From: Mesotaenium endlicherianum
Lineage: Eukaryota
Direction: 5' to 3'
DNA length: 46,843 bases
Assembly: GCA_009602735.1 (NCBI GenBank)
Contig: WELA01000730.1
Location: 151,583 to 198,425 of the forward strand
Shown here piece after piece: positions 1 through 42,343 of this stretch (positions are counted from its first letter, which is position 1; each line of letters begins with the position of its first letter). The position numbers were made by a program, and so were the translations under genes. The notes beneath the pieces were generated by a model. The model did no database searches. It saw only the letters and a program-made list of their open reading frames with translations, and was not told the origin of the DNA.

Positions 1-7
1 GCTGCAG

Positions 8-3200: not shown

Positions 3201-4009
3201 TGGGGGCCCACTTGCTGCAGGCCTTCTGCGAGGTCCGCATCGGCCTGCCCGCCCCTGCCCGCCACCTGTCCCCCCTTCCATTTGGCCGAGTGAGGGCTTT
3301 CCGTCCTGCATGCATGTGTAAGCGGCATTGGCATTTGCTACTCGGCACTGAGCAGGGCCTGACCGGTGAGCCGGTCGTGAGGATTCAACTGCGTATGGAA
3401 AGTGAGTATCCGAACCGACCCACGTCGACCCATCTCAAGGCACCGGGGCTGGAGCTCTGCCAGAACTTGGGTACGGGGAGGGGCATGAGGGGACCTGAGG
3501 CCCCTGACCTTACGACGAGCAGGACCTCTGGTCTTGCTGCTGCTGCTGCTGGTGCTCTAGAAAAGGGGGGTGGCATTGGGCGAGGGCGTGGGCGTGGGTA
3601 TGGGCTCGGGCGCGGGTGGGTGTCGGCGAGGACTCGGATGCCAGCGGGCGAGGGGCCTGACTGGCGGGTGGCTGGCGGGCCGGGCGGCTGACGGGGCAGG
3701 TGCTGGCGATGCGCAATCTGGACTACATCCTCACCACGGCCCCGCACCAGCTGGCGCACTGCCGCCCGGCGCTGCTGGCCGCCTTCGAGCGCAAGCTGGC
3801 GCAGTGCTCAGGGCAGCCCTGGAGCCGGCAGCGGCTGCCCACCCCCTCCTCCTCCCACCTCCCCGCCGTCGTCAGCAGCGGCAACCGCGGCGCTTGCCGC
3901 GACGACGAGGGCGACGAGGAGGAAGGCGAGGGCGCCACCTGGCAGGACTCTCTCTCCACGGGAGCCACATTTGGCTCTGATGGCCTCAGCGGCGGTCATG
4001 CAGGCTCCT

Positions 4010-4040
<31 letters not shown>

Positions 4041-8543: not shown

Positions 8544-9750
8544 GGAAGGACTGGCTGGCTGCACGAGGGCTGGCGATCGACGGCAGGGATTGCGCTCTGG
8601 GTGCCACCTGCGGCGGCCACCTGCGACGGCGGTGCTGAGGGCTGGCAATTGACAGCGGGGACTGGATATGAATTTGACTGGTCGTCTGGTTGAGTTTGAG
8701 CGGAAGGGTGTCACCAGTGCCTCTGCCCTTGCCTCTGACCGGGCAGGTTATTGATCCTTGCAGACGAGCATGAGTCCCAATGACTCGGTTGTCATGAAAA
8801 GAATCAATCTTGATGACAGGTTTAGAGATTGTTGGGCTACTCCTTGTACTACATAGATGGACAGGAGCCTTACACAAGGAGCGAGTATATATGCACCCAT
8901 AAGAATTATAGATCAGGCCACATTCTGGTGGGGTTGCCTCTTTACAATCTTTACAGAAAGCTTGTGCAAGCTGGGTGACTCTTTCTGTAATAATGCTATG
9001 GGAGAGAGAGAGAGATCTAGGCTTTTGTCAAAGAAATGGGCACTTTAAAACCCAACCCCGGGTGAAAAATGATCGAGCTTGTCTACATATGTCAATTTAC
9101 ATTGCGTTAAAGCAGGCTGCTATTTCGTTTTTTTGGCTGCTAGTTCGAAAGCATTGCCATGCTGAAGGTCATTGTCATATCAATCTCCTATGGACTCAAT
9201 AAACTATCAAGCAGATCCAAGTTCGCTGAAATAAAAGTGCGAGTGACTCTATCTGTCCAAGATATCACAACACAGTCGGCGCTACGCACTAAGACTACTT
9301 TTGTTTTCCTGTTCGACACTAACAGCTAAATGCAGCTTGTAGGTCTACGTATTTAAGTACTCGACAGTCGTCAAAGCAATGTACGATATCCTAAGATCAC
9401 AAGGTATTGAGCAATTACATGGCACAAGCTTCACCTTCTCCAGATTGGTGCCCGCAGACGTGCGCTCGCGCTTGCCTGCCTGCCTGCCGGCACACAAACA
9501 CACACGCACACAAAGGTACACACTTACGTACATGGGCGCGCAATACGCCCCACCCTACATGCCAGACTAAGGGGGTTGCCGCAGCTGCCGTCGCCCCTCG
9601 CACATGCAAACCCCAGACAGCCTCCCGCACACATCCAAGCAAGAGGGGCCAGCTGCTATGGATGCCCCCTTGCGCGCACCAGACGAGGGGGGGCAGCAGC
9701 TGCTGATTGTCCCCGCCCACAGGATATTCCGGGGGGGGGGGGGGGGGGGG

Positions 9751-11802: not shown

Positions 11803-13353
11803 TCACTCTGGCTGACTTCTCTCTTCTGCAATCGAGTGTAGTATCGCGTGTAGGGGTGTTGCTTCCAATGCCGAGCAGAGGTCTAATGAAGCCTCATTCG
11901 AGGCCAGCTTCCTTGCAACAATCTTGGACAAGTCGGCAGCCGGTGCCTTTTGAGGCGAGGCGGCGGAGGCCTCGGATGGTGGGGCCAGAAACCTCCTCCC
12001 CCTCGTGGAGCTGGCAGCAGGCGGGACAGGCTTTGTGCGGGTAGATGACACCGGCGTGGCAAAGTCACTGGCGTCCTTCGATTCCTCCAATGCCAAGCTC
12101 TCAGTCGCCGCTGTAAGCTTCTCAATCGTCGCCAGGTGGTCCTCGGACTGCTGGGACTCCTCCAGCGCCAGGCTGGCAGTCGCCGTTGTGAGCTTCTCAA
12201 CCTTCTCAATCGTTGCCAGGTCGTCCTCGGACTGCTGGCACTTGTTGAATGTCCCCTCCTTCAGGCCTGAGCCGGAGCTGGCACCTTGGGCGGTGCTTTG
12301 GGTAGGCCCATTGCCGTTGCTCCCTTGGAAGTCACTATTTACCGGTACATCGACAGCGTGTGAGTAGGCAGCCCGAAGGGCCCTTATTATAGCCTCATGC
12401 TGCCTGGCCTCCCTATTCGTGAAGTCCCTATACCAGGTGAAGGTTCCTATATTGTCTTTGACCTCGTCCTTGACCTCGTCGGTCACTTTGGCCAATAATT
12501 TCTCCTGCTCGGCTATGCACTCTGACATTATATCAGATGCCTGTACAAGCGTAATGTGAGTGCTCTGCAGTCTAGTCTCGTCCACTAGTGTTGGCAGCTT
12601 CCTCTTGCTGCTTCCACCACCCGTCAGGAAGAATGCATTATATATGTCACATACTATTTGAGTCAGAGCCTGCAGGCACTGGCTATCAGGTATCTTAGCA
12701 GCCCGCGTACACCGAAACTTCCTTGCAGCACCGGCAGGATGTATACAGCTATGCATGACTACGCTGCCCTCCAGCGGGCTAGGCATTTTGGCCTTTATTA
12801 TGGAGCCCATGCTAGCAGCCTCTTTTCCCAGGCATACCATTGGAATGGACTCGAGGCCTGAAGCAGGCAGCAGTAAAGCGAGGAGCTTGGTCACGCACTG
12901 CACTATTGTTACACACTCGTTGTGGCTGTCACTGGTGCCCTTTTCAGAACATATCCTGGCGTCAAGTAGCAGTATCCCGTAGTCCAACAAGGCATAAGAT
13001 TGTTTGAAGATCATCATGGACACCTCATGGGCGTCATTGGGGCTGATGCCGAGCATTTCGGACAGCTGGCTACACATAGAATTCGCCAGAACTACCACGG
13101 ACGGAGGGTCATAGGAGCCCACATATGCAAATGGGGCCCCTATGTATGGTATAATGGACCTGTCTCTAAATCCATATGGACTTTGGCCTATAATCAGGCC
13201 TCTTATCATCCTAGTGGTAGGCCACCGGAGGGCGTACCTGATAAACCCAGTTAATGCCTCCTCATACCTATTCCTGCCTATGAGAGTCAGACTATGTATC
13301 ATGGAAGCAACAGCCCTGCATGCATCATCTGTATTGAAGCGTTCTTGCGCCAT
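11803..13353 (-). CDS. Intronless family-1 uracil-DNA glycosylase-like protein (poxvirus D4-like N-terminal domain, aa ~45-215) with a long helical/low-complexity C-terminal tail
   Basis: Ordered UNG motifs: IIGQSPY (cf. GQDPY), GAPF, PPS, GILLLD (cf. GVLLLN), SH, VCLGKEA, HPAGAAR; 516-aa uninterrupted ORF. Confidence 0.75.
   Translation of the reverse strand: MAQERFNTDDACRAVASMIHSLTLIGRNRYEEALTGFIRYALRWPTTRMIRGLIIGQSPYGFRDRSIIPYIGAPFAYVGSYDPPSVVVLANSMCSQLSEMLGISPNDAHEVSMMIFKQSYALLDYGILLLDARICSEKGTSDSHNECVTIVQCVTKLLALLLPASGLESIPMVCLGKEAASMGSIIKAKMPSPLEGSVVMHSCIHPAGAARKFRCTRAAKIPDSQCLQALTQIVCDIYNAFFLTGGGSSKRKLPTLVDETRLQSTHITLVQASDIMSECIAEQEKLLAKVTDEVKDEVKDNIGTFTWYRDFTNREARQHEAIIRALRAAYSHAVDVPVNSDFQGSNGNGPTQSTAQGASSGSGLKEGTFNKCQQSEDDLATIEKVEKLTTATASLALEESQQSEDHLATIEKLTAATESLALEESKDASDFATPVSSTRTKPVPPAASSTRGRRFLAPPSEASAASPQKAPAADLSKIVARKLASNEASLDLCSALEATPLHAILHSIAEERSQPE
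12083..12240 (-). repeat. Two-copy coding tandem repeat in the UDG-like tail
   Basis: QQSEDDLATIEKVEKLTTATASLALEES / QQSEDHLATIEKLTAATESLALEES. Confidence 0.85.
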
Positions 13354-13410
13354 TCTCGCTGAATTCCTAGATAACCTGACAGAGTCTCTAACGTAGACGA
13401 GAAGTTAGCT

Positions 13411-13825: not shown

Positions 13826-14724
13826 ATCAGACAAGTACTCAGACAAGTTTGAATGGTGCATACCAGTGCATACTCACTCATACATGCAGCGTTAATCACG
13901 TGGTATTGATCCGAAGCAAGCTGCCACATGGACAATGCATCGAGTTATTGTATGTAATCTAAGGCGCACCCCACGCTGCCGCATGCTGCCCGACGCTCAG
14001 CTATAGTTCGAATTGGCCTGCACAGGCCTGCATGCATGCTCATTGTGTTATGACCTAGTCACGCAGTTAACTCCTCACACGTGCTAAGTTGACTCGCTAC
14101 ACTTGACTCGTCATATAGTTGACTTCATTCAAATACACCAGCTCAGCATGTACATTCAGTCAGCTAGTTCATCTAGTCAGCTAATAACTAGCGCCATTTA
14201 TTCTAGCTGTCAAGACAGCATGTTAAGAATACTTCACACAGATCAATAGCTGAGACCACTAGATCTTGCATCCTCTAGGATTGACATATATTCTAATCCA
14301 TCCATTCACATAGATGACGATGCAGCAGTTCAGTGATCAGCAGCTTAGACTGATCTTGCTACAGCTTCAATTCTTCATGTATAAATGATGACTCTCGCTA
14401 TTGCAAGATCATCCTTCAATCATTTAGCAAAGCTCCTTCAAGTCTTTACTTCTGTATCTACTAAGTACATGCTATCACGTTCCTCAGCTTAGACTACCTA
14501 GGCCCTAATGGCTGAAGGTAGTACTAACTCTTCCTTACACATTGCTCACCTAGCTTGCATGCTTATTTTCAGTATAGTTATAACTTACAATGTGTACCAC
14601 GCTTGATATGGTGGGACACGCGCTATCCGCGAAAGTGGCCGCGGGGTTCGAACTTCGGACTAATAATACGAGGCTCGGACCCTGGGCCTAGCAATGTCGC
14701 AACTGTCCTCCCTTCTGTGAGTAC

Positions 14725-15350
14725 GCTCGCTATCCCTCTTTCGTAAACCCCCCTATCCTTCTTCTCGTAACCCCCCGCCATCCCTCTTTTCGTCCGCCAT
14801 ACCCCCCTATCCTTTTTTCGTGATTCCCCCTATCCCTCTTCTCGTAACCCCCGCCATCCCTCTTTTCGTCCGCCATCACTCTTTTTGTACCCCCCTATCC
14901 CTCTTTTTGTAACCCCCCCTATTCCTCTTTTCGTAACCTCCGCCATCCCTCTTTTCGTCCACCATCTCTCTTTTCGTACCCCCCAAACCCACTTTTCGTA
15001 ACTCTCGCCATCCCTCTTTTCGTCCGCCATCCCTCTTTTCGTACCCTGCTATCCCTTTTTTCATAAGTCCTGGAGCCTACTATCCCTCTTTTCGTTACCC
15101 CCCCTATATCCCTCTTTTCATAACCCCCGCCATTCCTCTTTACGTCCGCTATCCCTCTTTTCCTACCCCCGGGCCCCCTATCCATCTTTTCGTAACCCCC
15201 GGCATCCCTCTTTTCCTCTGCCATCCGTCTTTTGGTACCCTGCTATTCCTTTTTCGTAACCTCTGGTATCTTCCAACGAAACCCCCGCCATCCCTCTTTT
15301 AGTACCCCTGCCTATCCCTTCTCTCGGCCACCCGGCGTTCCCCTCTTCGT
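14725..15350. repeat. Degenerate ~19-24 bp minisatellite, core ATCCCTCTTTTCGT(AACCCCC/CCGCC)
   Basis: More than 20 visible copies; strongly pyrimidine-rich + strand. Confidence 0.9.
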
Positions 15351-15900
15351 ATCTAACGGTCTGGATCGATGGATCGATGGCAAGCCTCTGTCGGTCAGAC
15401 CCGTAACGACAATTATGTGCATTGATGTGCTGTACTCTAAAAGTACGGTAACGTCTTGGCGTTCTTATCCGCCCGCGGGCATGCATCGTTGGGACTAGAC
15501 CCCTCGGATTCATAACTTTTTGTGTGTTATTTGCTACTTTGGATGCTAAATAACCCGACTCAAACCAAAGGGATGACGAATAAACGCGAAAAGGTGTTGC
15601 TCAACAACCTCGGGCTTTACAAATTTTTCGTTCGATTTATAACAGGATGTTTTTATGCACTCCAATAACGCCTAAATGATCCTTCCACATTTTTTTGGAT
15701 GTTCTCCGAGACCATCTGAAACCCTTGCTGTCGGGCAGAGGATGTCTTCAAAATCCACACTTTTGGCGAATCGAGGGGCCTGGTTGGGTTGCATGGGACC
15801 CATAGAGGTCCCCTCACTCTAAAAACTTCCAGAGCCCGAACGGCAGGATAATGACGCGGAAATGATAATGACGCCCACTTTTTCGAGCGTTCACTGCTAG

Positions 15901-17152
15901 TGTCGCGACTGCTATCCACTTGACGGTGCCGCATGCGCAGCGCAGGTCACGGCCGCCCAGGTACGGGAAGTCAACATTGACTCACCGACCAGAGTTATCT
16001 CAATCAGCGGTCAGGTCAAAGTTGTTATCACTGTCAAAGTGGTCACGACACGTCAAACCCACACCCAGGAATGGATGGGGATTTGGACGGAGTAGTCAGC
16101 CGAAAGGCTAGGGGTATGGAACCAGCAATGAGCCAGCCCAGCAAGTGCCAAGAAAGGTACTGATCAATCGGCTATCCAAGCCAAGTACAGCAGGGATGTT
16201 GTAAAGGCATTGTGTGCCACCTCGGCCAAGACCCTCAGGTGACTAGTCACAGCTTGAGCGTTCATCTTAAACGCTGCCAGCCAGCCACATAGGCGTGATT
16301 GTCAGCTGAAAGGCTAAGCGGTCACGCGCGATCATCCCAATGCATGCATGCACGCTGAATGACAACTTCTAAGCGGTGTGAGAATTGCAGGGTAAGGACG
16401 GCATGCAAGCTAAGCGCTGTGACTAAGCACTGGCATTCTCGAGAGAGGATAATGTGTGGTGTCCGTGAAAGGCACGAGTCCTGCCTGAAGCTGCCTCATT
16501 CTTGCTCGCATCGTTGTGAAAGGAAGCTGAAGAAGCAGAAGGAGCACAAAGAAGAAGGAGTTCCCAAGGCCATAGAAGAATCGGGCCGCCACGCTTCTGT
16601 CGACGCTGGAAGATTTCTTCCTAGTGTGTCATAGAAAAGTTAGACCTCAGGAGTTCCCAAGACAGGATCTCGCTGGTAGAAAGTAGAGAGCTGCAGAATA
16701 GAATCTGTCAGGAGATTAGCACATATTTGGTACAAATGCCACAAGCGTGCGAGGGACACTTAAAATGGTGAGTGCTGTGTTAGTTTCCAAGTTCTCAAAA
16801 GTCTCAATTGTCGAATTGCTGATAGAAAGAGTAGTATTAACAAGTAAAGCTCTCAGTGAAGAACTAAGTGAGCCCAGCCGAGCAGTGAAGAGCTGTGAAG
16901 GCGGTGTTGAGCAAAGAGCTCAGACCAGGCCAGCATAGATGTGCAGTTTCAGACTTTTGTAAGCCGTGACTTGCGAAAGTTAAGCGAAAACCTTGAAGGG
17001 CAATTTCTCTGAATCCGGCATTGCCTGTTAAGCTGCTTAAAAGTGATTTTTGCAAACTACAAACTTGTTCATTCTGTAAACCCTCAACTTGGGCAAAAGC
17101 CTGTGTGGAAGTAAGACGCTTCTGTTCTTACTTCTGAGAACTTCAGTGTTGA
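15901..17152 (+). mobile_element. Putative 5' LTR/leader of the DNMT-bearing retroelement
   Basis: Non-coding block starting TGTCG and ending GTTGAC-TGG just before the gag-like frame; no partner LTR in the window. Confidence 0.3.
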
Positions 17153-17161
17153 CTGGTTTAG

Positions 17162-19066
17162 GTGAGCAAGAATTCCCAAGTCAGCTGGGGATTGAGACCT
17201 GTGAAGGTTGCCGGTGTTCAACCTGGAAGGGGACCCGGAGAAATTCAACTGTATATGCGGTTGAGGAGTGAAAGACTCTACCACTCTGTGGAGCCTGCAG
17301 AAGGTTTTGATTCTAACCAGAGTCCACGAGGAAGTGAGACGTCTGAGCATATTGACAACCGATGGAGTGAGCAACCGTCGAGAGACAAGTCTCGTCATAT
17401 CTCCGCAGGCGGTGAGAACCCGGATAACACACGAGCCTTTGCACTTGATTTGGGCAGAGAGCAAGACGTGTGGGGTGAAGTCAGTAAGTCCTGGTCATCG
17501 TTCAAAATGGCCGGTGATGATTGGGATGAAAATCCTAAGTTCAAGCTATCTGCGAAGTGTTTTAGCGGACAAACCAGCGGAAACGGTCTCACTTTCGAAG
17601 AGTTTGATGAGATCTATTGGGCAGAATTCTTTGAGAAGATCCGGAAGGATTCTTCTTATTCGCAATTTGTCGCCTTTATAGGCTTGGTTCAGTACTTGGA
17701 CAAGGATGTCTTGCTGTTATATCGCCAATTCTGGAAGGATGAGAATCTCTCCCAGGAATGGGCTTGTGGAGAACAGAATAGGGCAAGGAATTTGAAAATC
17801 CAGAAAGAGGCTGCGAAAGCCCGAATGTCTGCTTTATCTTCAAGAAGAACAGTGCCAACTGCACCTGTTGAGAGCATAGACTTAGGTGCACTAACACAAG
17901 AATTAACAGAGGCCATGAGGCAACTCACTGAGGGCCAGCAAAGGGCAGCCACTCAGAATGATGATGCCGGCTCTGTCGCAGAATTGCAAAAGGTGTGTGC
18001 AGAACTGTCTGAAAAGATTGCTAATGCTCAGGAACGAGTAACACGCAAAGCTGCACCTCTCTATGGTCAGCAAGACAATAGCACCACGACAGAGGCAAGC
18101 CATGCGCAAGCCTTGGCTAGCTGTCGTAAGGATATGGAGGCTGGGGATGACCAGCTAGACTCCAAGCATTGCCTGCGTCGTTTCTTTAAATTGCTTGAAG
18201 CACGATTCCCAAAGGATCGCAGTCTTAAGGTACACCATTATGTGCATTTAATCCGTCAGAAGAACAAGACAATCATGGAGGTCAAATCCAGATTGGTAGA
18301 CCTCGCCAAAAAGGCAGAAATCGTTGAGTTGAAAGCTCAGTTTGCGGAACTAAACGAGCCCAATGTCTACTATGATGCAGATAGTGCAGAAAAGGCCGTC
18401 TACAAAGGCGAGAAGCTGATGCCTGAAAAGGCTGTGGACGCAACGGCTGCCGAGCAAGCAGATCACAACCGTCTGGTGCCAAGGAATGCTGGGAAGCTTC
18501 CTCAGACTTTCCGGATGACTTTGGATGAAAAGGAGATCTCGCAGCCACGACAGGCCAGGCCCGGGACGCGTAAGACATTTAGTTTTTTGCTGGAGAAGCT
18601 GAAGGCCCTGGTGGAACACCGGATCCAGCATGCTCCTTTGCTTTCTCTTGCTGATTTGCATATCACTTACCCATTCACGGTTGAAGAAGCCGGACACCAG
18701 CTGGATATAGCTGAGGAAGGTGCGGATAGCGCCTCATTGCCCACCAATTTCAGCACCGTGAGAGTGCAGAACAGGGATGGTGCATTAATCTTCAACAACT
18801 GGGCAGCTCCCAACATTCTGTTGGATACGGGTGCATAGCCAGTCATTTTGGGAAAGCGAGCCGTGAAAGCTCTGGGATTGACGACAAGGGACCTGAAAGA
18901 AAGTCCTTTCCAGCTGAGAATTGCCTCAGGACAAGTCTCAAAGTCTTGTGGGATTACCCGCAAGCCTGTGAAAATCACAGTAAATCCAAGGAAACCTGAA
19001 GAGGCGTCACTACTCATAGAGTGCACAGTGACGGAAGCAGAGAACTCTTGGGAACAGAAGCACTGA
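17162..19066 (+). pseudogene. Retroelement Gag-like plus retropepsin (aspartic protease) region, disrupted
   Basis: Long ORF (likely ATG 17507) reaching ILLDTGA*PVILGK with an in-frame TAG at 18836-18838; the same frame continues to ~19040, then a frameshift before the protease LLG motif. Confidence 0.75.
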
Positions 19067-20535
19067 TTCCCTTGGGTATGGTCATTGATCTGCGGAAGCA
19101 GAGGGTGACTTACCAGTCAACAGATTGGCAGCCGACAGGAGAAATTCGTGTGAAGATGGTTTGCACAGGAGAAGCAAACCACGGATTGCTAGACTGCTGC
19201 GTTAACGACAGGTACCCAGAAGCCGCTGACAACCTCATGAAGCAAGAAGAGGAAGGCTATACGAGCATCAACATGCCAACACCCTTAGTATGGCAACCCC
19301 GACTCATGAAGCAGCTGGAAACTGTGAGTAATAGGGACCGCGGCCCGCAAGAGTTGCTGCCAGTACCCTACCCAGTTACCTCCACTGCAAATTTAATGCC
19401 TAGAGTTGAGCCGCTGCCGCAAGGCATTGTCAGGATGGAAGATCCTTTTCGCAAAAGGGGAGTAGTGGTGTTGGAATTATTTGCCGGACTTGGGTCTCGG
19501 ACCATAGCATTGATCCAGCGAGGAATACAAGTGGCCAAAGTCCTGTATGTGGACAATGACGACCACGCTTTTCTAGCATTCAAAGAAGTCATGAGTCAGA
19601 TGCAGAAAATGCATTATTTTAAAGGATTGGCGCCCGCATATAGCGATGTCGAGCGCATTGCCGAAGGCAACATTATTGATGTAAAGCCTGAAGGCCTGTA
19701 TGGCTACAGGATTGACTGGATCTTTGCTGGATTTCCTTGTCACCCGTTTTCTCAAGCTGGAAACCGGAGGGGATTCAGTGATCCACGAGCACAACACTGG
19801 GGATGGATGGTGAAAATCATCAGCATGCTGCGGGAACGACAGCACTACTACCCATCAGTGTTTGTGATTGAGAATGTGCATCCAGGAATGGATTATAAGC
19901 AGATGAAGCCAGGAGAACCATGGCTGATTTTCGACTCCACTTTGGGCCATCATGTGCTAATCAACGACGCCAAGCACGAAGGATTATCCCATAGGGCCAA
20001 GATATTTTGGATCAACGGCATGTCTATTGAGGTCCTGAGAGAGATGGAGGACATTCCACGGCGACCACCAACAGCCTTGACAGTGGAAGAGGCGCTGGCG
20101 GTGCATACCAGACCAGTGGCCAGGAGGGATTTTTATCCACAGTGTGTCATCAACGAACCAGGTCAGCCAAGGGTGGTATTGCCATCCTTCACAGCATATC
20201 CAAAATCCCGAGCCTTCATAGAAGGTGGACCAAGAATGGTCAAAAACATGCATGAAAGAGACGCTGTTTGGAGAGGGCCCAGTGCGGTGGAGAAGGGCAA
20301 ATGCCTTGGAATACCCGACATCATAGCTCGTCATACAGCCGGTGCTGTAGGGTCAGATGAAGCTGCAAAGATTTTCGGCAACATGATTGGGCAACACTCT
20401 ATGACTTGGTTGGTAGAAACAATCATGACGTGGCAGCAGCTGACCTTCACTGACAAGCCTATGCAGAGGCCAAGACCAGTGACAATTGGGGTCAATGTGG
20501 TGCCAACGTCTGATCAGACATATACTTTTTTCTGA
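19021..20535 (+). CDS. C5-cytosine DNA methyltransferase domain of a retroelement polyprotein; truncated at ~20511 by another LTR
   Basis: Motif I LELFAGLG (19471-19494), IV AGFPCHPFS (PC at 19735-19740), VI FVIENV (ENV at 19870-19878), VIII HRAKIFW, X IFGN (~20377); preceded by the protease C-terminus ELLGTEAL. Confidence 0.9.
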   Translation: MHSDGSRELLGTEALIPLGMVIDLRKQRVTYQSTDWQPTGEIRVKMVCTGEANHGLLDCCVNDRYPEAADNLMKQEEEGYTSINMPTPLVWQPRLMKQLETVSNRDRGPQELLPVPYPVTSTANLMPRVEPLPQGIVRMEDPFRKRGVVVLELFAGLGSRTIALIQRGIQVAKVLYVDNDDHAFLAFKEVMSQMQKMHYFKGLAPAYSDVERIAEGNIIDVKPEGLYGYRIDWIFAGFPCHPFSQAGNRRGFSDPRAQHWGWMVKIISMLRERQHYYPSVFVIENVHPGMDYKQMKPGEPWLIFDSTLGHHVLINDAKHEGLSHRAKIFWINGMSIEVLREMEDIPRRPPTALTVEEALAVHTRPVARRDFYPQCVINEPGQPRVVLPSFTAYPKSRAFIEGGPRMVKNMHERDAVWRGPSAVEKGKCLGIPDIIARHTAGAVGSDEAAKIFGNMIGQHSMTWLVETIMTWQQLTFTDKPMQRPRPVTIGVNVVPTSDQTYTFF

Positions 20536-20987
20536 ATTTAAACTCATAGGACTACCTCTCCACAAAATTTCAAAATTTGAATATAAGTCTAACACTCAAA
20601 CGAGATCGTCACTTTGTGCCTCACGCACGTAGGACGCACACGCGCTCAACACGTATCAAGCTCCCGCGCCTACAAATGGCACATGCTTAAATTCCTGATC
20701 TGAAACTTGACTATGACTCAAGGCAGGCCTCATACTAGGCCTCTCACATCATGTAGGACTTCTAGTGAAAATATTACCCACTCTCTCCTAAGTAGGCAAA
20801 AAGTAGCCAAAATCTGCCAACTTCTACCCTCGCGCTCGCCTACTTGTAAAACCCTCAAACATAGACAGATTTGAGTATCTTCCAAGCTCTTGCTCTCAAA
20901 CTTCTTTCCACTTCACATCTCTTAGTTATAAATTAACTCATGGGACTGGCTTGACCCTGCTTACAAGCACTATAAACAACTATAACA
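20511..20987 (-). mobile_element. 3' LTR of a minus-strand, probably Ty1/Copia-type element
   Basis: On the minus strand TGTTATAG...TGATCA, preceded by PPT TGAGGGGGGGGAG (20988-21000); interrupts the DNMT ORF. Confidence 0.55.
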
Positions 20988-21785
20988 CTCCCCCCCCTCA
21001 TCATGAAGGTAAGGCGCTTACCACTCGACTATCCAAGTCCAGATTTTACGCCTCTCTCGTGCTTGCTTGTATAGGCGCTGATTCTCCTAGCTTCATGTCC
21101 AAGTCTTTGTCATATATCTCCAAATTAGACAGGACATATCAGTCCCATAACACTTGGTCTCCTCCTCATAGGTCCGTATCCACAAAGTCGTAGTCTCCAT
21201 CAAGCGACGATAGTAGTCTTCACAAGGCATGAGCGTGTAAGCTCGCCAAACTCCATCATAGTCTCCTTCTTGGCTAGATGCTCACTCCCACATACTCCTA
21301 GTCCTCCTTGAAGGTAAGCCTTGGCACCAGGCTCCAAGAAACACATTTGGAACACCTCCAAGAACTCCATAACTTGGGCATACGCACATACTCTTAGTTC
21401 TTGCACCTCATCTTGTGCACGCACACACATGGTCTTGCAAGCGGGCTTCTCTTGAGCTCACTTTCTAGGAGCTCCTCCACTTGAGCAGTTGGGGTCTGCT
21501 CTATATATGAGCAAGGGGATCATACACCTCTACTTGCTCCACCAGCGATGCGCGCTCGCCAAGGTTGTTAGGACGCACGCTTGCTACATGCGATGACCAG
21601 GCCAAGGTCACCAACACAAGCGCTTCTCCTTCACCTTCACCTTCCCGCGTCGCTTCTTTGCTAGCGGGCTGAAGATGGCTACTTGTGGTCTTATCTACCT
21701 CCACCTATTTCACTATCTTCACTTGACCATACTCCTCCTTGGTCTTCACTTGACCCGTGCACTAAAGCACTAGAGGATAGGCTAT
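20988..21785 (-). mobile_element. PPT and decayed internal remnant of the same element
   Basis: Polypurine tract abutting the LTR; stop-riddled sequence. Confidence 0.4.
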
Positions 21786-22733
21786 TGTGACGTTTCTGCT
21801 TTTCGAGAGGATCTTTTCCTCGGTCTTCAAGGAATATTTAATTGAAGTGGAAAGAAAATCTACATACTTGTGCAAATTGACAAATCCTCGAGAAAGCGAA
21901 AATGAAAATTAACGTAAACTGTGTGCTTGTGAGAGTTGCACTCACAATGACTCTACAGGTATTTATACTTGCACACTGTGAGGCACTGGAGTGCTTCGAG
22001 TCACCACCTAGGGCACTGGTTCATGTCAACGAAATCAGGCAAAAGGGTACGACCCATTTCGGCTGAATGCTCAAAACGCGCCGTTTGGCCGTTTGGAGAC
22101 TTTTTGACGGTTTCCGAAAAACCGTTTCGCGCCAAACGGGCGTTTTCGCGTTCTCCCGACTTTCCAAGAAGTTGCGACTGTTCGCGGAGTCGCGTACACA
22201 TGCTTTCGTCATGAACCGGTAGTTTAAAAAGCTACTTTGGCCAATCGGTTAGGTGTGAACGCTTCACTGACAAGTCGCGTGTTCGAATCCGCTCGGATGC
22301 AAAGCGACTTTGCATATTTCGTTTCGTCTGACTCTTACGGCTATTTGTTTGTGTTAATGATACGGCTGTTTGTTCGTATTAACGACTGGTCGTAAATTCA
22401 AAATTTGTGACTGAGCATTATTCGAAATAATGACAATCAAAATAACTTAATCAAACAATGATTGATTAAGTCATCATCTCATAATTTAATCAAAGTAACT
22501 TTATGAATAATTATGTCATACTTTTGCGAAGTAGTCAAATTACGTTACGACGCTTTTTGCAATAGAATCTCGGTCGTTTCGCCAATCGACTGGGAATTAA
22601 TCGGCACACGCGTGTGACGAATAATTGAATGTGATGCAATCATTTATCAAATAATGTATGATAAACAGTATAACGTATTTTAGGAAATTTGGGAAAATGT
22701 CCAAAATACGCCTAAAAAGCTCAAATCGTTACA
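21786..22733 (-). repeat. Family B 3' LTR (~948 bp)
   Basis: TGTGACG...CGTTACA on +, homologous to 27989-28978; adjacent PPT ctcctcccccttaaaa at 22734-22749. Confidence 0.9.
22231..22315 (+). promoter_or_regulatory. tRNA-like Pol III type-2 promoter (A box, B box) plus hairpin, inside the family B LTR
   Basis: TGGCCAATCGG (22238-22248), GTTCGAATCC (22281-22290), ATGCAAAG-cga-CTTTGCAT (22297-22315). Confidence 0.6.
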
Positions 22734-22874
22734 CTCCTCCCCCCTTAAAAGAACTTAACGTCCTCGTTAAGCGTACGTCTTTCAAGTTTTAAATGTGTCA
22801 ATATTAGCCTTGGCTAGCGGAAAGCACTGGTGAGCGATTGGACTACGCATCATGACAGTGACGGAAAAGAGCGA

Positions 22875-25800
22875 TTAGTTTGCCGCGTCTCTTTTGCGTT
22901 TGTTCCTTGGCTTACGAATTGCACCGAGTAGCACACTTGCCGTCGTACAGAGCTGTTGAACGATAGCCCATCGTAACCAATATTGTTGAACCAGGTCCTT
23001 ACAATTAAGTAGGAATTCGTCCTGAGGTTCGTACGAGTTCCAACTGGAATCGTAATCAAGCCACTTTATCAAAAGCTCCACGCGTAGAGGCTTATGATGA
23101 GTGTAGCGGTGTCCTAAGACCTCCTCTACATCCCAGGCCTTATCATCATCAGCGAGTTCCAATTCGGGTGCTTGTGGCTTATAGCGGCCATTGGACCTAA
23201 ATAGCTTAAGTAAACTGACATGGAACACAGGATGCGTTCGCCCCATGTATTCAGGCAAATCCAGTCGGTATGCAACAGGGCCAACCTTTGCGATAACGAT
23301 AAAAGGGCCTACCCAGCAAGGCAGAAGCTTGCACTTTCCTGGGTGCTTGAGTTGGAGGTTTTTAGTTTGCAAATGTACTTTATTGCCAACTTGAAAACTT
23401 AACTTAGTCCTGCGTGTGTCAGCAAACGTTTTCTGCCGATCTCGAGCAGCGGCTAAAGCCAGCTTCGCGTTTTTGTGCACCTCTTGAAGAGAATGGACAA
23501 ATAGGCGTGCAGTTGGCACTCTCATGGTTGACAGCCCCGCCTCAGCGTAAACGACGCGCGTGAGAGGAGTGTGCGGATGTTGCCCATAGTCAAGGAAAAA
23601 TGAAGTTTCCTTAACACTTTCCTGATAAGCATTATTAACTGCGAACTCTGCGATTAAAAGGAGGGTGTCCCAGTCGTCTTGGCAAGGATTAACATAATGC
23701 CTAAGGAACTGTTGCAAAACGCGGTTCATTCGTTCTGTCTGACCATCGATTTGAGGATGGAAGCTAGTCGACATCTTAAGTTTTGTGCCGAAGTGCGAGC
23801 AAACTTCCTGCCAGAATTGGCTCGTAAATCTAGTGTCACGATCACTTATGATCTCTTTCGGCATGCCATGCAACTTGAACACGTGATCTACGAAGAGACG
23901 CGCGGTCTCGACGGCATCAAGTGATGGTTTAGTGGCCACAAAAAGTACCATCTTAGTGAAACGATCTACGACCGTTAACACCCCATTGTGTCCTCTATCG
24001 GTGTTAGGCAATTCCACGACAAAGTCGAGGCTAATGCTTTCCCAAGGAGCACATGCAAGTTCCAATGGTTGCAACTTCCCAGCTGGCAACGTGTTGCTCG
24101 GCTTATTCCTTTGACTTGTTGCGCAGTTGACGATGTACTCGGCAACATCAACCTTAAGGGACGGCCAAATGTACCCTCGGCGCAAAGTGTGTGGTTTTGG
24201 TAATTCCATGGTGACCTGAGTAAGAAGAGTCATGCGCTTCTCGTAGTAGCACATGTCTTACTCGGCCTTCTGGGACAGCAATGCGCCCATTGTGCCACCA
24301 AGAACCGTCCTCAAACAAAAAGTCTGAGTGTTCTTTCCTTTTATCCATACTGTCCATCGTCACGGCTACATCGCTCAAGTCAGTTCCCTAGAGATCTAGG
24401 AAAAACGGATCTTTGAGATAGCCCTCATGAAATAGTTGATGCAGGTCAAGTACTTCACAGGTTTGCATGCTACCCAAATCGGGTTGGCCCGCGTCACCAG
24501 GCCGTGCAACGCCAGTCGTCTGGGGGGGTACAGCAGAATCAAGGGTGGCCGCCCTTGAAACCTGACCGTTTCGTCCTTGCAAACTAGCAACAGTCCCCAA
24601 CATCAAGTGGTGAAGGGGAATTCGACTTAGAGGGTCCGCAACATTATTGCGACCAGGGCGATACGACCAGTTAAAGTGGAATCGTTGCAAGAACTCAGAC
24701 CATCTCGTCTGGCGCCTCGATAGCGTTGGCTGTATTTGAAAGCAGGGATTTGGGCAGTGATCCGTAACCACTGTTGAACCCTTGCAGCCTTCCAAATAAC
24801 ATCGCCAAGTCTTTAAAGCGTATATGACTGCCCAGAGCTCCTGCTCTGTCGTTGAGTAATTTTGTTCGGCAGGTGTCAGCTTTCGACTATCAAAACTGAT
24901 AGGCTTGCCTGCCTGCAGCAAAACAGCCCCTATTCCAACACCGGACGCATGGGCGACTACCTCGTAAGGCAAGTTGGGACCGGCTAACGAAAGAAGTGGC
25001 GCATTAGTGAGTGCATACTCAATGTGCTCAAACGCATGGTGCGTATTCTCATCCCAAGTGAACGGCTTATCTTTCCTTGTCAGAGCAGTGAGTGGCGCGG
25101 CCATCATTGAATAACCTTACATAAACTTACAAAAGTAATTAGCAAACTCGAGGAATGAACGTACAACATGTACATCTTTTGGGACAGGCCAGTCAGCGAC
25201 GCACGCAATTTTGGCTGGGTCAGGGCGCACCCCTTTCGAACCCACTATATGTCCCAAGTACCTCAGTTCATCCTTTAGGAAGGAACATTTCTTGAGCTTA
25301 GCGTACAGCTGTTGCTCACGAAGGATTTGCAACACCAACTCGAGGTGCTTGTAATGCCCGTCCCTGTTCTTTGAATAGACGAGGATATCGTCGACGTAAA
25401 CCTGGACAAGGTTCCCCAAGTAAGGTCTAAACAAATCGTTGATTGTACTTTGGAATGTTGCTGGTGCATTGGTAAGTCCAAAACTGAGGAATTGTATTGG
25501 AAGTGCCCAATAGGCGTACGAAACGCTGTTTTGGGGACATCCTCTGGTGTGATTCGAATTTGATGATAGCCTTGGGCTAAGTCAAGCGAGGACAACACGC
25601 ACGCCCCCTGCAACAAATCAAACAAATCATCAGTGCGAGGCAACGAGTAGCGGTTCTTGACCGTTATGTTGTTCAACGCACGATAATCAATGCACATTCT
25701 AAGCGTCCCATCTTTCTTTTGAACAAATAGGATGGGGGCGCCGAATGGAGAAGAGCTCGGATCAATCCATCCTTTCTCCAGCAAGTCGCTAATTTGGTCT

Positions 25801-26834
25801 TTCATTTCGTTCATCTCCAACGGGCTTAGGCGATAAATTGGTCGCCAAGTCGGTTGAGAATTGGGAAAGAGAGGGATTGTATGTCCAATACCCCTGTCAG
25901 GCGCAAGCCCGGCGGGTATTTCACTTGGAAACACTGATTTGTACTTTTGCAAAAGAGCAAAAAGTTCAGCTGTGAGGGTTTCCTCACGACCAGTAACGTC
26001 TATCATTGGCTCTTGCGTAAAGAGCGTAGTTGAAGTTGCTGGGGAATCGGGTCTTAGTAATCCAAAGAAAACATTTTGACCGTGGTTTGCCAAACGTCGA
26101 GCTTGCTTTATGGACAATAGAAGAGTCTTTGAAGGACTATCCAACGCCATAGCGGGCTTAAGGGACTAAAGGGTAAACTTCTTGGTCCCCTTGCGTACAA
26201 TGCATGTCTTTTGACTAAAGTCAAGCAATGCACTTGTTTGCGTAAGCCAATCATTACCAAAAACTGCGTCGATTCCATGCGGCAATTCAGTGACGTAGAA
26301 TTGTACGTGGCCGATGTATGACTGCACTTTTACTCGCAACTTAATCGATCCGATAATACAAACTAACAAGCCATCGCCAAGGCAAAGGGTCTCGTCCTTG
26401 AGTATTGGAAGCAACTTCATCCCTTGTGCAAAACGTGCACTAATGAAGCTTACTGATGCGCCTGAATCAATGACTGTGAAGCATGAACTGCCTGAAACTT
26501 TCGCGTCAAACGTCATGCTTAACCCCAAAGAAGCATTATGCATCACCAACAACGTCCTCGCCGTGAGAGGAATGTGGGAAATGTGGAGGTCCTTTTTCAA
26601 AATCCCATTTTGCATTGCTGTCCTTACGCGTAACCGAGTAATCGGGTTAGAGTACGCGCGAATATGTGTAAATGCACTAATATAAGTTGGTGCAAGACAC
26701 TTATGCATTTTCCTTAATCGAGATAAGTGTGCGTAACACTTGGCAAGGTTAGGATCATGCGGCTGGAAGTGCAAGAACATGGTATCATGGATGCACTCGA
26801 GTTCCTCAAACTCGTCAAAGCTCAACACTTGCAT
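22875..26834 (-). pseudogene. pol: Family B pol (protease, RT, RNase H, integrase, chromodomain) in frameshifted pieces
   Basis: [22 protein letters not shown] and YVDD; RH ASGVGIGAVL...TDH; INT SLDFV, SDRD, GQTER, VGPF; chromodomain WDVEEVL...IKWLDY. ORFs 26166-26834, 25275-26150, 25117-25434, 24388-25107, 22875-24254. Confidence 0.92.
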
Positions 26835-27769
26835 ACTAATATATTCCGAACGAAATATATCAATATCAGGTATGCCAGAGTGAACAAGAACCTTTGGTGC
26901 GAGCGCACAAACACCTAGAGTTTCCTACTCACTAAGTAGTGTTGGCAACAACTCAGAAGAAATTGGCACTTATCAAGTTAAATGCAATGTCAATCTTGAC
27001 ATGATTTGAGTGAGAGTTGTGATAAGCAGGGCAGTGTTCTTAACGTTTTCAAGCTCAAATCCATGTGAGAGGGGTGAGTCACAAATGGACGAGATAGAAC
27101 AGATGCAAAAGCATTGTGCCAAAGCAATAGAGAAAGGGAAACAATCCACAAACTCAAATGATAAGCGACAAAATCAACCCAATGTCAAAGAAACATGTCA
27201 AATCTGGTCAAAATGGGACCAAATACGGACGACAAGGTTTTGAATCCAGAAATTGTGCGCGCGAGTCAATTCTCGTAGAATGACAACAAGTGCGACAATG
27301 TCATGGAAGAGACCCGTGGGCAAAAATCCTTTGTGTATATCACAACACGCGCATAGCAACCAAGAACACAAGGTGGGTGGGATGGGTGGGGATGAGAAAG
27401 AAAGTCCCCTATGGACCCTTTTGGTGTGCAACGGTGCAAAAAGCCCCAAACGGGTGCAGATTTTGACTTAAATATGTGCAAGGGACTGAAGAAATAGGAA
27501 CCCTTCACCACAAAAGTCGAAATCGTCTGAAAAAGAAACAAGCGGCGTTGTTAGTAACGGCGAAAAAAGAAAGGTTCAATGGAAAAAACTCCAACAGCGC
27601 CTAGTTGGCCTAAGGGACCGTTGAGGTTGTCGCCGTGGCCAGCGGCAAGAGCGGCATCATTGCAGTTGCACCAACAACGGTTGCGTTGGCGCCGGCGTAA
27701 GGATTTTTCCGGAAATCCTAGGAAACGCTGGAAAATGGAGAAAAAATACCCCGTCAAAAGTGGCTACGA

Positions 27770-27893
27770 GAAGCGACCGTAGGTTCAGAGCAGAATTGGG
27801 ATGGGTGACCGTCCAGTTTGAAGAATTGCCCCAAACACATTTCTACGATAAGCGACCGTAGCCCAGGGCAGTACTGAGATGGGTGACCGTCCA
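27770..27893 (+). promoter_or_regulatory. Two 5S-rRNA-like internal control region copies in the family B leader
   Basis: TAAGC-N15-CAGTACT-GAGATGGGTGACC at 27849-27888 matches plant 5S TAAGC-N15-TAGTACT-AGGATGGGTGACC; a more diverged copy at 27770-27810. Confidence 0.65.
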
Positions 27894-27975
27894 ATACCAA
27901 AAATACCCCGAAATATGTTTTCCCAGAATGTATTCCAACCACTAAAAAAAAAATTCCTTGGAGAAACCGAGATTG

Positions 27976-27987
27976 GCTCCGATACCA
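27976..27987 (-). other. Primer binding site (tRNA-iMet) of family B
   Basis: TGGTATCGGAGC on the minus strand, 1 nt from the LTR end. Confidence 0.9.
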
Positions 27988-27988
27988 A

Positions 27989-28978
27989 TGTGACGTTTCT
28001 GCTTTTCGAGAGGATCTTTTCCTCGGTATTCAAGGAATATTTAATCGAAGTGGAAAGGAAATCTATATACTTGTGCAAATTGACAAATCCTCGAGAAAGC
28101 GAAAATGAAAACTAATAGAATTTGTGCTTGTGAAAGTTGCACTCACAATGACTCTTGCAAGTATATATACTTGCACAACGTGAGGCACTGGAGTGCTTTG
28201 AGTCACCACCTAGGGCACTGGTTCATGTTCAACGAAAAACGGTTGAATTGGACATAACCAAGTCGGCCTAATACTCCCACCGCGCCGTTTGGCCTTTAGG
28301 AGACTTTTCGACGGCTTCCAAAAAACCGTTATACGCCAAACGGGCGTTTTCGCGTTCGCGCGACTTTCTGAAAAGTCGCGATTGCTCGCGCGGTCGCGTA
28401 CGGATTAATTCGACATAAACCGGTAGGGATAGTAACGACTTTGGCCAATCGGTTAGGAGTGAACATTGTCAGCGAAAGGTCGCCGGTTCGAATCCGTCAA
28501 AATGCAAAGTAACTTTGCATATTATATTTCGTTTGACTTTACGACTATTTTCGGAACCGCGACGCGCTGACCGGGACGTCGCGGGACCGGTGGCTCCCTT
28601 GGGCCACAACTTGGTGTTTTCTTACGGGTTAGCGACATGTCGTTAACCGAAAACAATGACTGTTAATATCCGAAATAATGAAAATTATATCAACTTAATC
28701 AATCCGAGAATTATTACGTTATCATCTCATAATTAATCAAAGTAACTTTGTGAATAATAACGTCGTACGCTTGCGAAGTAGTCGAGTTACGTTACGACGC
28801 TTTTTGCAATAGTATCTCGGTCGTTTCGTCAATCGACCAAGAATTAATCGGCACACACGTGTAGCGAATAATTGAATATGATGCAATCATTTATCACATA
28901 ATACGATAAATAGTATAACGTACTTTAGGTAATTGGGAAAACGTTCCAAATACGCCTAAAATAGCTCGGATTGTTACA
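27989..28978 (-). repeat. Family B 5' LTR (~990 bp)
   Basis: TGTGACG...TGTTACA; homologous to 21786-22733 but visibly diverged. Confidence 0.9.
28434..28520 (+). promoter_or_regulatory. tRNA-like A/B box plus hairpin in the second family B LTR
   Basis: TGGCCAATCGG (28442-28452), GGTTCGAATCC (28485-28495), ATGCAAAG-taa-CTTTGCAT (28502-28520). Confidence 0.6.
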
Positions 28979-31262
28979 TAGGCGTCCGAAACGCTGTTTT
29001 GGGGACATCCTCTGGTGTGATTTGAATTCGATGATAGCCTTGGGCTAAGTCAAGCGAGGAGAACATGCATGCCCCCTGCAACGAATCAAACAAATCATCA
29101 ATGCATCAGTGCGAGGCAACGAGTAGCGGTTCTTGACCGTTATGTTGTTCAACGCACGATAATCAATGCACATTCTAAGCGTCCCATCTTTCTTTTGAAG
29201 AAATAGGATGAGGGCGACCAATGGAGAAGAGCTCGGATCAATCCATCCTTTCTCCAGCAAGTCGCTAATTTGGTCTTTCATTTCGTTCATCTCCAACGGG
29301 CTTAGGCGATAAATTGGTCGCCAAGTGGGTTGAGAATCGGGAAAGAGAGGGATTGTATGTCCAATACCCCTGTCAGGCGGAAGCCCGGCGGGTATTTCAC
29401 CTGGAAACACTGATTTGTACTTTTGCAAAAGAGCAGAAAGTTCAGCTGTGAGAGTCTCTTCATGACCAATCACGTCTAACATGGGCTCTTCCGTTAGTGG
29501 AAGTGACTGGAGAAGCAGGTCGCAGTAATCCAAAGAAAACATTTTGACCTCGTTTTGCCAAACGTCTAGCTTGCTTGATGGACAATAGAAGAGTCTTTGA
29601 AGGACTTTCTATGGTCATATCGGGCTTAAGAGACTGGAGAGTAATCTTCCTTGTCCCTTTGCGAACAATGCATGTCTTTTGACTAAAGTCAAGCAATGCA
29701 CTCGTTTGCGTTAGCCAATCATTACCAAAAATTGCGTCGATTCCATGCGGCAATTCAGTGACGTAGAATTGTACGTGGCCGATGTATGACTACACTTTTA
29801 GTCGTAACTTAATCGTTCCGAGAATACAAGCTAACGAGCCATCGCCAAGGCGAAGGGTCTCGTCCTTGAGTATTGGAAGCAACTTCATCCCTTGTGCAAA
29901 ACGTGCACTAATGAAGCTTACTGATGCGCCTGAATCAATGACTGTGAAGCATAAACGGCCTGAAACTTTCGCGTCAAACGTCATACTTAACCCCAAAGAA
30001 GCATTATGCATCACCAACAACGTCCTCGCCGTGAGAGGAATGTGGAAAATGTGGAGATTCTTTTTCAAAATCCCATTTTGCATTGCTGTCCTTGCGCGAA
30101 ACCGAGTAGTCGATTCAGAGTACGCGCGAATATGTGTAAATGCAGCAATATAAATTGGTGCAAGACACTTATGCATTTTCCGTAATCGAGATAAGTGTGC
30201 GCAACACTTGGCAAGGTTAGGATCATGCGGCTGGAAGTGCAAGAACATGTTATCATGGATGCACTCGAGTTCCGTAAACTCGTCAAAGCTCAACACTTGC
30301 ATATTAATATATTCCAAACGGAATATATCAATATCGGGTATGCCAGAGAGAACAAGAATCTTGGGTGTATGCAAACATACACCTAGAAGTTCTTGCTCAC
30401 TAAGTAGTGTTGTCAGTAGCTCAGAAGGAGGCGCAATGACTGGCTCCTGAGCTACGTCATCGGGACTATACCGCAAATCCTTTCTTGAAGGACACGTTTT
30501 AAAGGTATGTCCCTTTTTGCCACATGAAAAACACATACTTGGCGCCACCATGTGGGGACGAGTCTCGGTGTTATCAATCTTGCGAGGCTTTAGAGCATGT
30601 CCTTGTGGGTTGGCAATGTTTCCGCTTTTGGAAGGGTTATGCTGTTTCGGACGTCCCTTACGAGATGTATGAAAACCGGTATGAGGAGGACGTTTAGTGC
30701 AAACAGGCTGACGACGAGACTGTACGGCTGGCTCCTTTTGTTGTCTCGTCTCGCGAGCTACAGTGGACTTTGGGCGACCTTGAAATTCTTCAGGCGGGGA
30801 GGGTTTGTGGGTAGGCGTCGATGCCGAGACCTGCCGAGGGGTGGCAAGTGGGAGAGGCTGAAGAGTAACGTCGCCAGCGGTCCCAGATGTGCTAGCAACC
30901 CCCTGGACAGCCTGCAAGTATGAACGAATCGCGATGTTAATAACCATCTTGGAAACAAAGCGACTGTGCGCAATGAACGTGGCGAAAAAAGGGTTCAACG
31001 GAAAAAATTCCACAGCGCCTAGTTGGCCTGAGGGACCGTTGAGGTTGTCGCCGTGGCCAGCGGCAAGAGCGGCATCATTGCAGTTGCACCAACAACGGTT
31101 GCGTTGGCGCCGGCGTAAGGATTTTTCCGGAAATCCTAGGAAATGCCGAAAAATGGAGAAAAAATTTCCCGTCAAAAGTGGCTACGAGAAGCGACTGTAG
31201 GTTCAGAGCAGAACTGGGATGGGTGACCGTCCAATTCTAAGAATTGCCCCAAACAGATTTCT
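28979..31262 (-). pseudogene. Family B copy 2: leader, partial gag (zinc knuckle), protease and RT N-terminus
   Basis: CFSCGKKGHTFKTC knuckle, [18 protein letters not shown]; homologous to 25511-26960 and 27555-27845; a third 5S-like box at 31188-31228. Confidence 0.88.
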
Positions 31263-32133: not shown

Positions 32134-32852
32134 TGTAATGAATCAGTATATTGGTAGATATAATAATCATTTAAATATAATAGTTAATTAAGTTCAGCCT
32201 GCTGAACTTTACGTAGTATGTAAGTCTGCTGGACTTTATATAGTTATCAGTTTAAGGACTCAGTCGGAAGCAGCAGGCTGAAGTCAACTTAAGTCAGCTT
32301 GCTGACACATTCTTTGACAGCCAGCTGACTTCCGTACTCGGTAGCAGCGAACTGCCTCGATATGCATCTAAGTGTGGTATGCTAGATAAATGGCAAGATG
32401 ACATTCCTATGATGGATGGCGATTCGGGATGATGGGAGATGGCGGTGGATTTGGTTAACCGAGGTCCTACCAACGTGGTTAACTCCCGGGTAGGTGGTGC
32501 CATCGCACTGGCCGTTGAACAGTAAACTCATTCCATGTACATATGCTAGGATTGCTCTCGAGTTCGGCATTCGGAAACGAGGCCAACTCTCTTGTACAGC
32601 TTACTTAGAGAAATCTGAATCCAAGGCGAGAAGCCATTGATACGCATTGTCTTCCAACCTTGCTTATGTACGAGTTTACAGATTGCATTATTGATGCTAG
32701 TTTACTTGCATTTGACTTACGAGTATTATTCACTGCTAGTGTGTTGTCCTTTGCCATTTAACCAGTTAACGGAAAATACCATAAAGATTACTTGCTGATA
32801 TAAAGATCTTTATTAATTGTTAATCGCCTATTTGGTAAGTCGATTCATTTCA
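32134..32852 (+). repeat. Family C 5' LTR (plus-strand copy, 719 bp)
   Basis: TGTAATGAATC...GATTCATTTCA terminal inverted repeat; PBS TGGTATCGGAGC at 32854-32865. Confidence 0.95.
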
Positions 32853-32886
32853 GTGGTATCGGAGCAGTTATCACAGTCTTCTTTGT

Positions 32887-42309: not shown

Positions 42310-42330
42310 ACAAAGAAGACTGTGATAACT

Positions 42331-42342: not shown

Positions 42343-42343
42343 C

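Follow-up and report, generated by a model that had tools for sequence, protein, structure and literature searches.

We analysed a 46,843-nucleotide stretch of DNA from Mesotaenium endlicherianum (assembly GCA_009602735.1, contig WELA01000730.1, positions 151,583 to 198,425), hereafter the window, in which a retrotransposon copy carries a C5 cytosine DNA methyltransferase (DNMT). Between positions 17162 and 20510 of the plus strand, a Gag-like region is followed by an aspartic protease (PR) and then by a full-length DNMT, and the DNMT-bearing region has no introns. The coding sequence occupies two plus-strand open reading frames (ORFs), at 17162-18838 (558 aa, ending in LLDTGA) and 19000-20535 (511 aa). 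The C-terminal part of the protease shares the second frame with the DNMT, so that the change of frame falls inside the protease, and a linker of ~100 residues separates the two domains. The DNMT motifs start at 19474 (ELFAGLG), 19546 (YVDND), 19726 (AGFPC), 19870 (ENV), 19990 (HRAKIFW) and 20374 (FGNMIG). The succession of Gag-like region, LLDTGA protease and DNMT had been proposed in a first-pass annotation made from the letters alone, and it was borne out by the ORFs, the motifs, Pfam and profiles built from relatives. The features of the element are collected in Table 1; neither a repeat partner nor a primer-binding site was identified within the window for the region upstream of the ORFs. 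From this genome, the analysis covered one copy of the element family, that in the window.

Table 1. Features of the DNMT-bearing element and its borders (window coordinates).
Feature	Positions	Strand	Remarks
Non-coding region upstream of the element	15900..17161	+	possible 5' long terminal repeat (LTR) or leader
Gag capsid-like region	17507..18310	+	from relatives' Gag profiles; probable start Met at 17507, ORF open from 17162
Shortened Gag C-terminal part	18290..18511	+	KLPQTF spacer motif retained at 18494
Retroviral-type aspartic protease	18782..19165	+	LLDTGA at 18818; disrupted by stop and frameshift
In-frame TAG directly behind DTGA	18836..18838	+	in the active-site (catalytic) strand of the protease
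Frameshift near 19043	19040..19047	+	homology switches to the second frame
C5 cytosine methyltransferase domain, DNMT3-related	19450..20440	+	full length; motifs I-X in canonical order, not rearranged
Post-DNMT tail, first 23 codons	20441..20510	+	remainder outside the window
LTR-like segment of another element	20511..20987	-	TG...CA ends; truncates the DNMT element

The Gag-like region scored 25.4 and 30.0 bits on two profiles made from relatives' Gag only, and shuffled controls for the same profiles peaked at 9.7 and 7.7 bits (500 shuffles each). Its N-terminal helices and an F..L...F / RL..LA helix agree with the relatives. A Pfam search with this region gave no match, none of the 7990 candidates of a word-index search was a match, and ESM Atlas returned top scores of 0.85 that included gag/retrotrans_gag clusters, which we treat as leads only. 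The window reading, joined across two breaks with X, was scored on profiles that again came from relatives only: the 131-position protease profile was matched from 6 to 125 at 92 bits, and the 326-position DNMT profile from 2 to 326 at 188 bits. The DNMT was furthermore recognized by Pfam PF00145 (E 1.3e-15, 58 bits, cut-off 22).

The methyltransferase is closest to the DNMT3 class. When the family profile was compared with solved structures, DNMT3A came first at 85 bits, ahead of DRM (60) and HhaI (51), and a second run gave 97, 61.5 and 46 bits in the same order. An alignment-based model of the window DNMT reached a predicted local distance difference test score (pLDDT) of 89, as against 32 for a model made without the alignment. 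In a Foldseek search with the DNMT model, the 12 best listed rows and rank 13 were all DNMT3, headed by DNMT3B and DNMT3A, and VIA-align superposed the model on DNMT3B with a Z of 26.0 and a root-mean-square deviation of 3.1 over 277 aligned residues. By the family profiles and Foldseek, then, the domain lies nearer to DNMT3A/B than to DRM, DNMT1, DNMT2 or the bacterial enzymes. The phylogeny that the first-pass annotation had called for gave a partial answer: in a DNMT tree with 14 prokaryote-type methylases as the only outgroup (19 near-duplicate or broken PR-DNMT rows omitted, 20 RNase H-DNMT rows sampled), the window sequence fell on the retroelement side with a branch support of 100, and no well-supported subgroup was found for it there.

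A full HMMER scan of 1.84 billion representatives with the window DNMT yielded 491 relatives at E<=0.001, and the best 150 of these, which are 23-34% identical to it, were scored for domain layout with purpose-built profiles; a word-index search with the same domain had found no match among 1833 candidates. The DNMT stands after the protease and/or before the reverse transcriptase (RT) in 23 of the best 150, after RT/RNase H (RH) and/or before the integrase (INT) in 68, often with a C-terminal PHD finger, and is the only domain visible in 59. Protease and DNMT were both detected, in that order, in 20 of the best 150. The three top matches of the window are PR-DNMT proteins, as are all 8 relatives that matched the window protease in tblastn (the best 40% identical over 77 aa), and the same relatives match the Gag, protease and DNMT of the window in the same order. 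Named members of this first layout come from Klebsormidium nitens, Mesostigma viride, Closterium and Marchantia polymorpha. The K. nitens protein (KFL_013780020, P0012) was match 12 of the 150 (E 1.5e-18) and has the order zinc knuckle, protease, DNMT; the window domain is thus an intronless, DNMT3-related homologue of the K. nitens retroelement DNMTs. In Marchantia, several 1,280-residue "hypothetical proteins" (P0191, P0219, P0220, P0226 and P0227) correspond to the lineage's ORF1, and two are encoded on the V chromosome; PR-DNMT relatives in this species include Mp4g09160, Mp5g06330 and MpVg00370. Among metagenome loci only 3 of 80 belong to the family, and in a scan of viral contigs the matches at 17 loci were weak and confined to motifs (E 4e-6 or worse).

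One of the loci, L001, is a complete element in which Gag-PR-DNMT is followed by RT-RH-INT-PHD, and therefore the element class is fixed as Ty3/Gypsy; whether full-length relatives have these domains downstream had been left by the first-pass annotation as a check. The RT-RH-INT order downstream recurs in P0033 and P0200. Among 27 and 8 proteins scanned, the relatives showed rve and H2C2 integrase domains and no recombinase match, and this DDE-type integrase, like the protease of the window, does not fit the DIRS or tyrosine-recombinase class. The window itself retains the Gag (partial, without zinc knuckle) and aspartic protease of a Ty3/Gypsy element, and judged by its relatives it is of that class. 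The second layout, RT-RH-DNMT-INT-PHD, has a named member from Scenedesmus. Gypsy elements of this layout, for example P0010, P0018 and P0019, carry both a DNMT and a PHD reader; one member has in addition a Tudor-like domain and another a G-patch. The second layout forms a single clade in the DNMT tree (support 98; 0.925 in another tree) and in an RT-RNase H tree (support 94; 39 versus 8 rows). One DNMT capture followed by one move between layouts is suggested, and only suggested, because the RT-RNase H tree has one outgroup and the DNMT trees have no host DNMT3.

The element breaks off at 20511, where GC content falls from 0.50 to 0.42 with a reversal of skew. A polypurine tract at ~20988-20998 on the minus strand adjoins the segment that begins there, and the stop codon of the second ORF (20533-20535) falls within it. 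The statement that an LTR interrupts the element at this point held in part: the TG...CA ends, the polypurine tract and the change of composition are consistent with it, and no second copy of 20511-20987 exists within the window, so that the segment is best called a putative LTR. No repeat partner was found within the window for 15300-21785, and the 3' half of the element is missing. Because of this truncation RT-RH-INT is absent from the window, in keeping with the earlier remark that RT and integrase are not visible. Around the element lie other, nested Gypsy elements whose integrases bear chromodomains. We considered the minus-strand Gypsy RT and integrase genes to the right as the missing 3' half and rejected them: they encode chromodomains, and their identity to Pol of the relatives is only 28-38%.

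Relatives indicate how the missing half might have been expressed. RT lies downstream of the DNMT at all three family loci whose DNA was seen (L001-L003). At L001 (5083-5091) and L002 (2081-2089) the DNMT tail and RT are separated by an in-frame TAG CAGTTA, which fits the CAR YYA signal; L003 is too decayed for a junction signal to be visible. In tobacco mosaic virus (TMV) this hexamer is needed for readthrough, which is ~10% efficient (PMC2754532), and the chance of finding such a hexamer behind an arbitrary stop is 0.15-0.3%. Furthermore, 36 of the 46 PR-DNMT relatives with a complete DNMT stop short of RT, soon after the DNMT, and in clusters P0175-P0189, which were found with L001, 14 of 15 terminate at an alignable position, down to 51% identity to L001. 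In many families the DNMT is thus likely to be made in abundance with Gag, and RT-integrase less often, by readthrough. Because just 23 tail codons survive in the window, we infer rather than observe a Gag-side dose for its own DNMT.

As read from its letters, the window copy is dead: it cannot make the enzyme because of an in-frame stop, a frameshift and a truncated Gag. The first-pass annotation had counted a single frameshift, which proved to be too few, as there are two breaks, the TAG at 18836-18838 and the frame change near 19043. The position of the TAG is a sense codon in 50 of 50 relatives and Gln in 32 of them. Behind the TAG the first frame still encodes protease as far as ~19043. 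At the frameshift a few residues are lost that all 7 aligned relatives have, and since these conserved residues are missing, the frameshift is likely a deletion and not programmed recoding. From the capsid helix to the RLPxSF spacer motif the window has 68 residues, compared with 265-375 in all five relatives checked, so that ~200-300 Gag residues, including the zinc knuckle region, are absent; no zinc knuckle was found in any of the three frames of the window Gag region. The DNMT frame has zero stops. When a relative's domain was made to decay neutrally in simulation to 35% amino-acid change, it acquired a mean of 5.55 stops and stayed stop-free in only 2 of 300 runs. The substitutions at conserved columns likewise speak against plain decay, with 5 of 24 fitting C>T/G>A changes. 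Therefore, most of the divergence arose while the frame was under selection, which argues that the diverged family was active and that the window copy broke afterwards.

Taken together, these results make it very probable that the window holds a decayed, 3'-truncated copy of a DNMT3-carrying retrotransposon, Ty3/Gypsy by its relatives. Its active ancestor likely encoded Gag, protease and DNMT as one polyprotein that was packaged, and the enzyme would have methylated cytosines of the element's own cDNA. By analogy with the best-scoring relatives, the ancestor probably had a stop behind the DNMT tail and obtained RT-RH-INT by occasional readthrough, which would bring the DNMT into the particle at a Gag-like copy number. 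General Gypsy biology makes it similarly plausible that the protease would free the DNMT inside the particle. Methylation of the element's own cDNA is a proposal of PMC5890265; that the substrate would be new cDNA, likely at CG, and that the inserted copy would thereby resemble host DNA or resist deamination, we regard as a nearly even call.

Several observations weigh against this interpretation. Neither RT, nor integrase, nor an LTR pair of the DNMT family was found in the window, and the identity of the window DNMT to any relative is at most 34%. The DNMT3 affinity is tempered by the structural comparison, in which DNMT3B stands only ~1 Z above M.MpeI (24.9), by the model itself, which is also shaped by the family alignment, and by a single-sequence PDB search, which matched M.HaeIII and M.HhaI and not DNMT3; the window branch in the tree is long, and the tree program warns of long-branch joining. 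As to expression, L001 and L002 are 91% identical and the readthrough signal therefore counts as one observation, 10 of the 46 PR-DNMT relatives continue into Pol domains without a stop, and some of the 36 proteins that end early may do so because of contig borders, faulty gene models or decay. As to activity, 26 of 58 conserved DNMT columns are altered or gapped in the window, C>T/G>A decay accounts for just 5 of the 24 substitutions at conserved columns, and the one Gypsy-DNMT3 domain with a published assay, that of K. nitens, produced no methylation in yeast, which the authors of that work consider inconclusive (PMC5890265). The enzyme may thus have been inactive even in the live family.

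This last point leads to the strongest rival, in which the origin is the same and the family already had a DNMT that acted as a non-catalytic or weak DNA-binding module, retained since the frame had to stay open or since it bound nucleic acid in the particle. The window retains 32 of the 58 family-conserved columns, the lowest count of 132 sequences (39-58 in the 131 relatives), and it departs from the family in motifs IX and X. The second Arg of motif VIII is Lys (position 19999), a residue that none of the 131 relatives has there. The counterpart of this Arg in the alignment with DNMT3A is likewise the second of motif VIII, whose loss in murine Dnmt3a (R202A) leaves <12% activity (PMC4802922). 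In addition, motif IV of 76 of 136 scored relatives reads EC instead of PC before the catalytic Cys, and the yeast result for K. nitens points the same way. Conversely, FxGxG, PC with its Cys, ENV, the first Arg of motif VIII, W-x-N and GN are retained amid drift elsewhere, one G>A substitution suffices for the change from Arg to Lys, which may be decay of the window copy alone, and Lys at this second position is not among the Dnmt3a mutants in the tabulated portion of PMC4802922. The claim of a complete motif set with an intact catalytic Cys accordingly needs to be narrowed: Cys (IV), Glu (VI), GN and the first Arg (VIII) are present and the second Arg is not, which leaves it doubtful that the window DNMT is catalytically intact. 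We consider a module inactive throughout the family to be unlikely, if well worth keeping in view, compared with a family that was active and a copy that decayed.

Much less probable is that the element was a non-autonomous Gag-PR-DNMT derivative without Pol, mobilised by a partner, with the absence of the zinc knuckle as a family trait. The gap in Gag is in frame, as such a derivative might show, and the 36 of 46 relatives that end without RT would fit it, downstream DNA having been seen only for L001-L003. Yet RT follows at all three of these loci, no matching LTR stands behind the window DNMT, and loss of the nucleocapsid would, from general knowledge, be expected to cripple packaging.

A chance neighbourhood, in which a host, viral or bacterial DNMT fragment came to lie beside a Gag-protease remnant in a transposon nest, is largely refuted and very improbable. 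The different frames of protease and DNMT, the bacterial matches of the single-sequence PDB search and the long tree branch might suggest it, but the frameshift lies inside the protease with its C-terminal part in the DNMT frame, introns are absent, all the best matches are retroelement proteins, and the same relatives match all three regions in order. The linkage of protease and DNMT recurs in the 20 relatives noted above, and the DNMT region is not a host gene fragment. Programmed recoding at the TAG behind DTGA and at the frameshift can hardly be credited, even in a lineage where readthrough stops occur, as the stop lies in the catalytic strand with no stop-CARYYA context there (nor anywhere in 15900-21000), 0 of 50 relatives are interrupted at that point, and the frameshift deletes residues kept by relatives.

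The rest of the window contains a host gene, an ORF of possibly foreign origin and further Gypsy elements. A GC-rich host gene with RCC1 repeats occupies 1-8600 on the plus strand; within it, 4199-6190 forms a perfect (100%) repeat at a spacing of 1996 bp that spans a single N at 6194 and probably stems from duplication in the assembly. On the minus strand, 11806-13404 is an intronless ORF of 533 codons with a GC content of 53%, beside a 69% GC host gene. Its N-terminal half resembles the uracil-DNA glycosylase (UDG) superfamily, with a Pfam match that stays under the cut-off (PF03167, E 0.032) and an ESM Atlas score of 0.91 to prokaryotic UDG clusters, and a PDB sequence search gave no match. 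This ORF, possibly a foreign or mobile gene, lies 3.7 kb upstream of the DNMT element and points away from it, and a degenerate pyrimidine-rich tandem repeat of ATCCCTCTTTTCGT-like units is found between the two at 14700-15350. To the right, 21786-31262 on the minus strand is a chromodomain Gypsy element with an iMet-type primer site and LTRs at 21786-22733 and 27989-28978 that are 83-85% identical; it has no matching target-site duplication, and another copy of the same family is nested with it (25510-26959 versus 28978-30427). Another chromodomain Gypsy family fills 32134-46843, with a tandem (34269-38742 versus 42344-46843, 98%) and an inverted partial copy at 32134-34269. It carries an additional 581-aa ORF 3' of the integrase (35105-36847 and 43206-44948), for which no Pfam or NCBIfam family was matched.

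Beyond the window, one wider picture seems possible to us, with somewhat less confidence than the choice of cDNA as substrate. Gypsy-DNMT3 would be one old, widespread clade of the green lineage, with members in streptophyte algae, liverworts and chlorophytes. A single capture would have put the DNMT behind the protease, and in one branch it would since have been relocated to a site between RNase H and integrase. Many families would have a leaky UAG-CARYYA stop downstream of the DNMT, so that particles are loaded with methyltransferase at a Gag-like copy number and RT-integrase(-PHD) is rationed; the window would be a deep, fast-evolving branch. What is new here is the DNMT upstream of a likely readthrough stop; this and the two DNMT positions, both seen in relatives, are the points of most value. 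The layout with the DNMT behind the protease is common in algae and in liverworts, including Marchantia. A DNMT upstream of a likely readthrough stop would alter the expected dose of enzyme, and the dose bears on the purpose of retroelement DNMTs, whether to mark the element's own cDNA or to act on host DNA. Near-full-length ORF1 copies, annotated as hypothetical, are present in Marchantia polymorpha, a tractable model, which makes the question testable. At listing level, the open-access literature yielded only two papers that name Gypsy-DNMT3 and no paper linking these elements with bryophytes or readthrough, and the accessible portions of PMC9033089 and PMC6453930 contain nothing on retroelement DNMTs.

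That retrotransposons carry DNMTs was, as the first-pass annotation noted, already known. A DNMT3 in a Gypsy polyprotein has been described for K. nitens as KnitGypsy-Dnmt3 (de Mendoza et al. 2018, PMC5890265), and Gypsy-DNMT3 is also mentioned in PMC12344493, PMC6338049 and bioRxiv 10.64898/2026.05.21.726589. Judged by homology, the window element is a divergent member of this published kind. Like it, KnitGypsy-Dnmt3 has an intronless, non-rearranged DNMT3-related domain in a Gypsy polyprotein (PMC5890265). Its DNMT is assigned to the Pol ORF together with RT and RNase H, a DIRS-like repeat layout is given for it, the accessible part of the text makes no mention of a protease, and the peer-review file agrees that the three domains share an ORF (PMC5890265); by contrast, in many relatives of the window the protein ends behind the DNMT and RT follows a stop, and the window copy is dead. 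SymbioDIRS-Dnmt3 of Symbiodinium is likewise a retroelement-borne DNMT3 domain, and in the account of PMC5890265 the only one shown to methylate CG de novo in yeast. It belongs, however, to a DIRS element with a tyrosine recombinase and represents an independent capture (PMC5890265), whereas the window relatives have a DDE integrase and an aspartic protease. The EpiLTRs of Euglena gracilis also combine an LTR retrotransposon with a C5 methyltransferase, but their DNMT is sister to DNMT4 and accompanied by DAM and a chromodomain, and the preprint sets them apart from the streptophyte Gypsy-DNMT3 (bioRxiv 10.64898/2026.05.21.726589). Candidate readthrough of the TMV type, UAG-CAR-YYA, has been reported for the rice gypsy element RIRE2 (PMC2754532). 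As in TMV-type readthrough, the stop in L001 and L002 would set the polymerase apart from a more abundant upstream protein; in these relatives of the window, the candidate signal stands behind protease and DNMT and not behind Gag.

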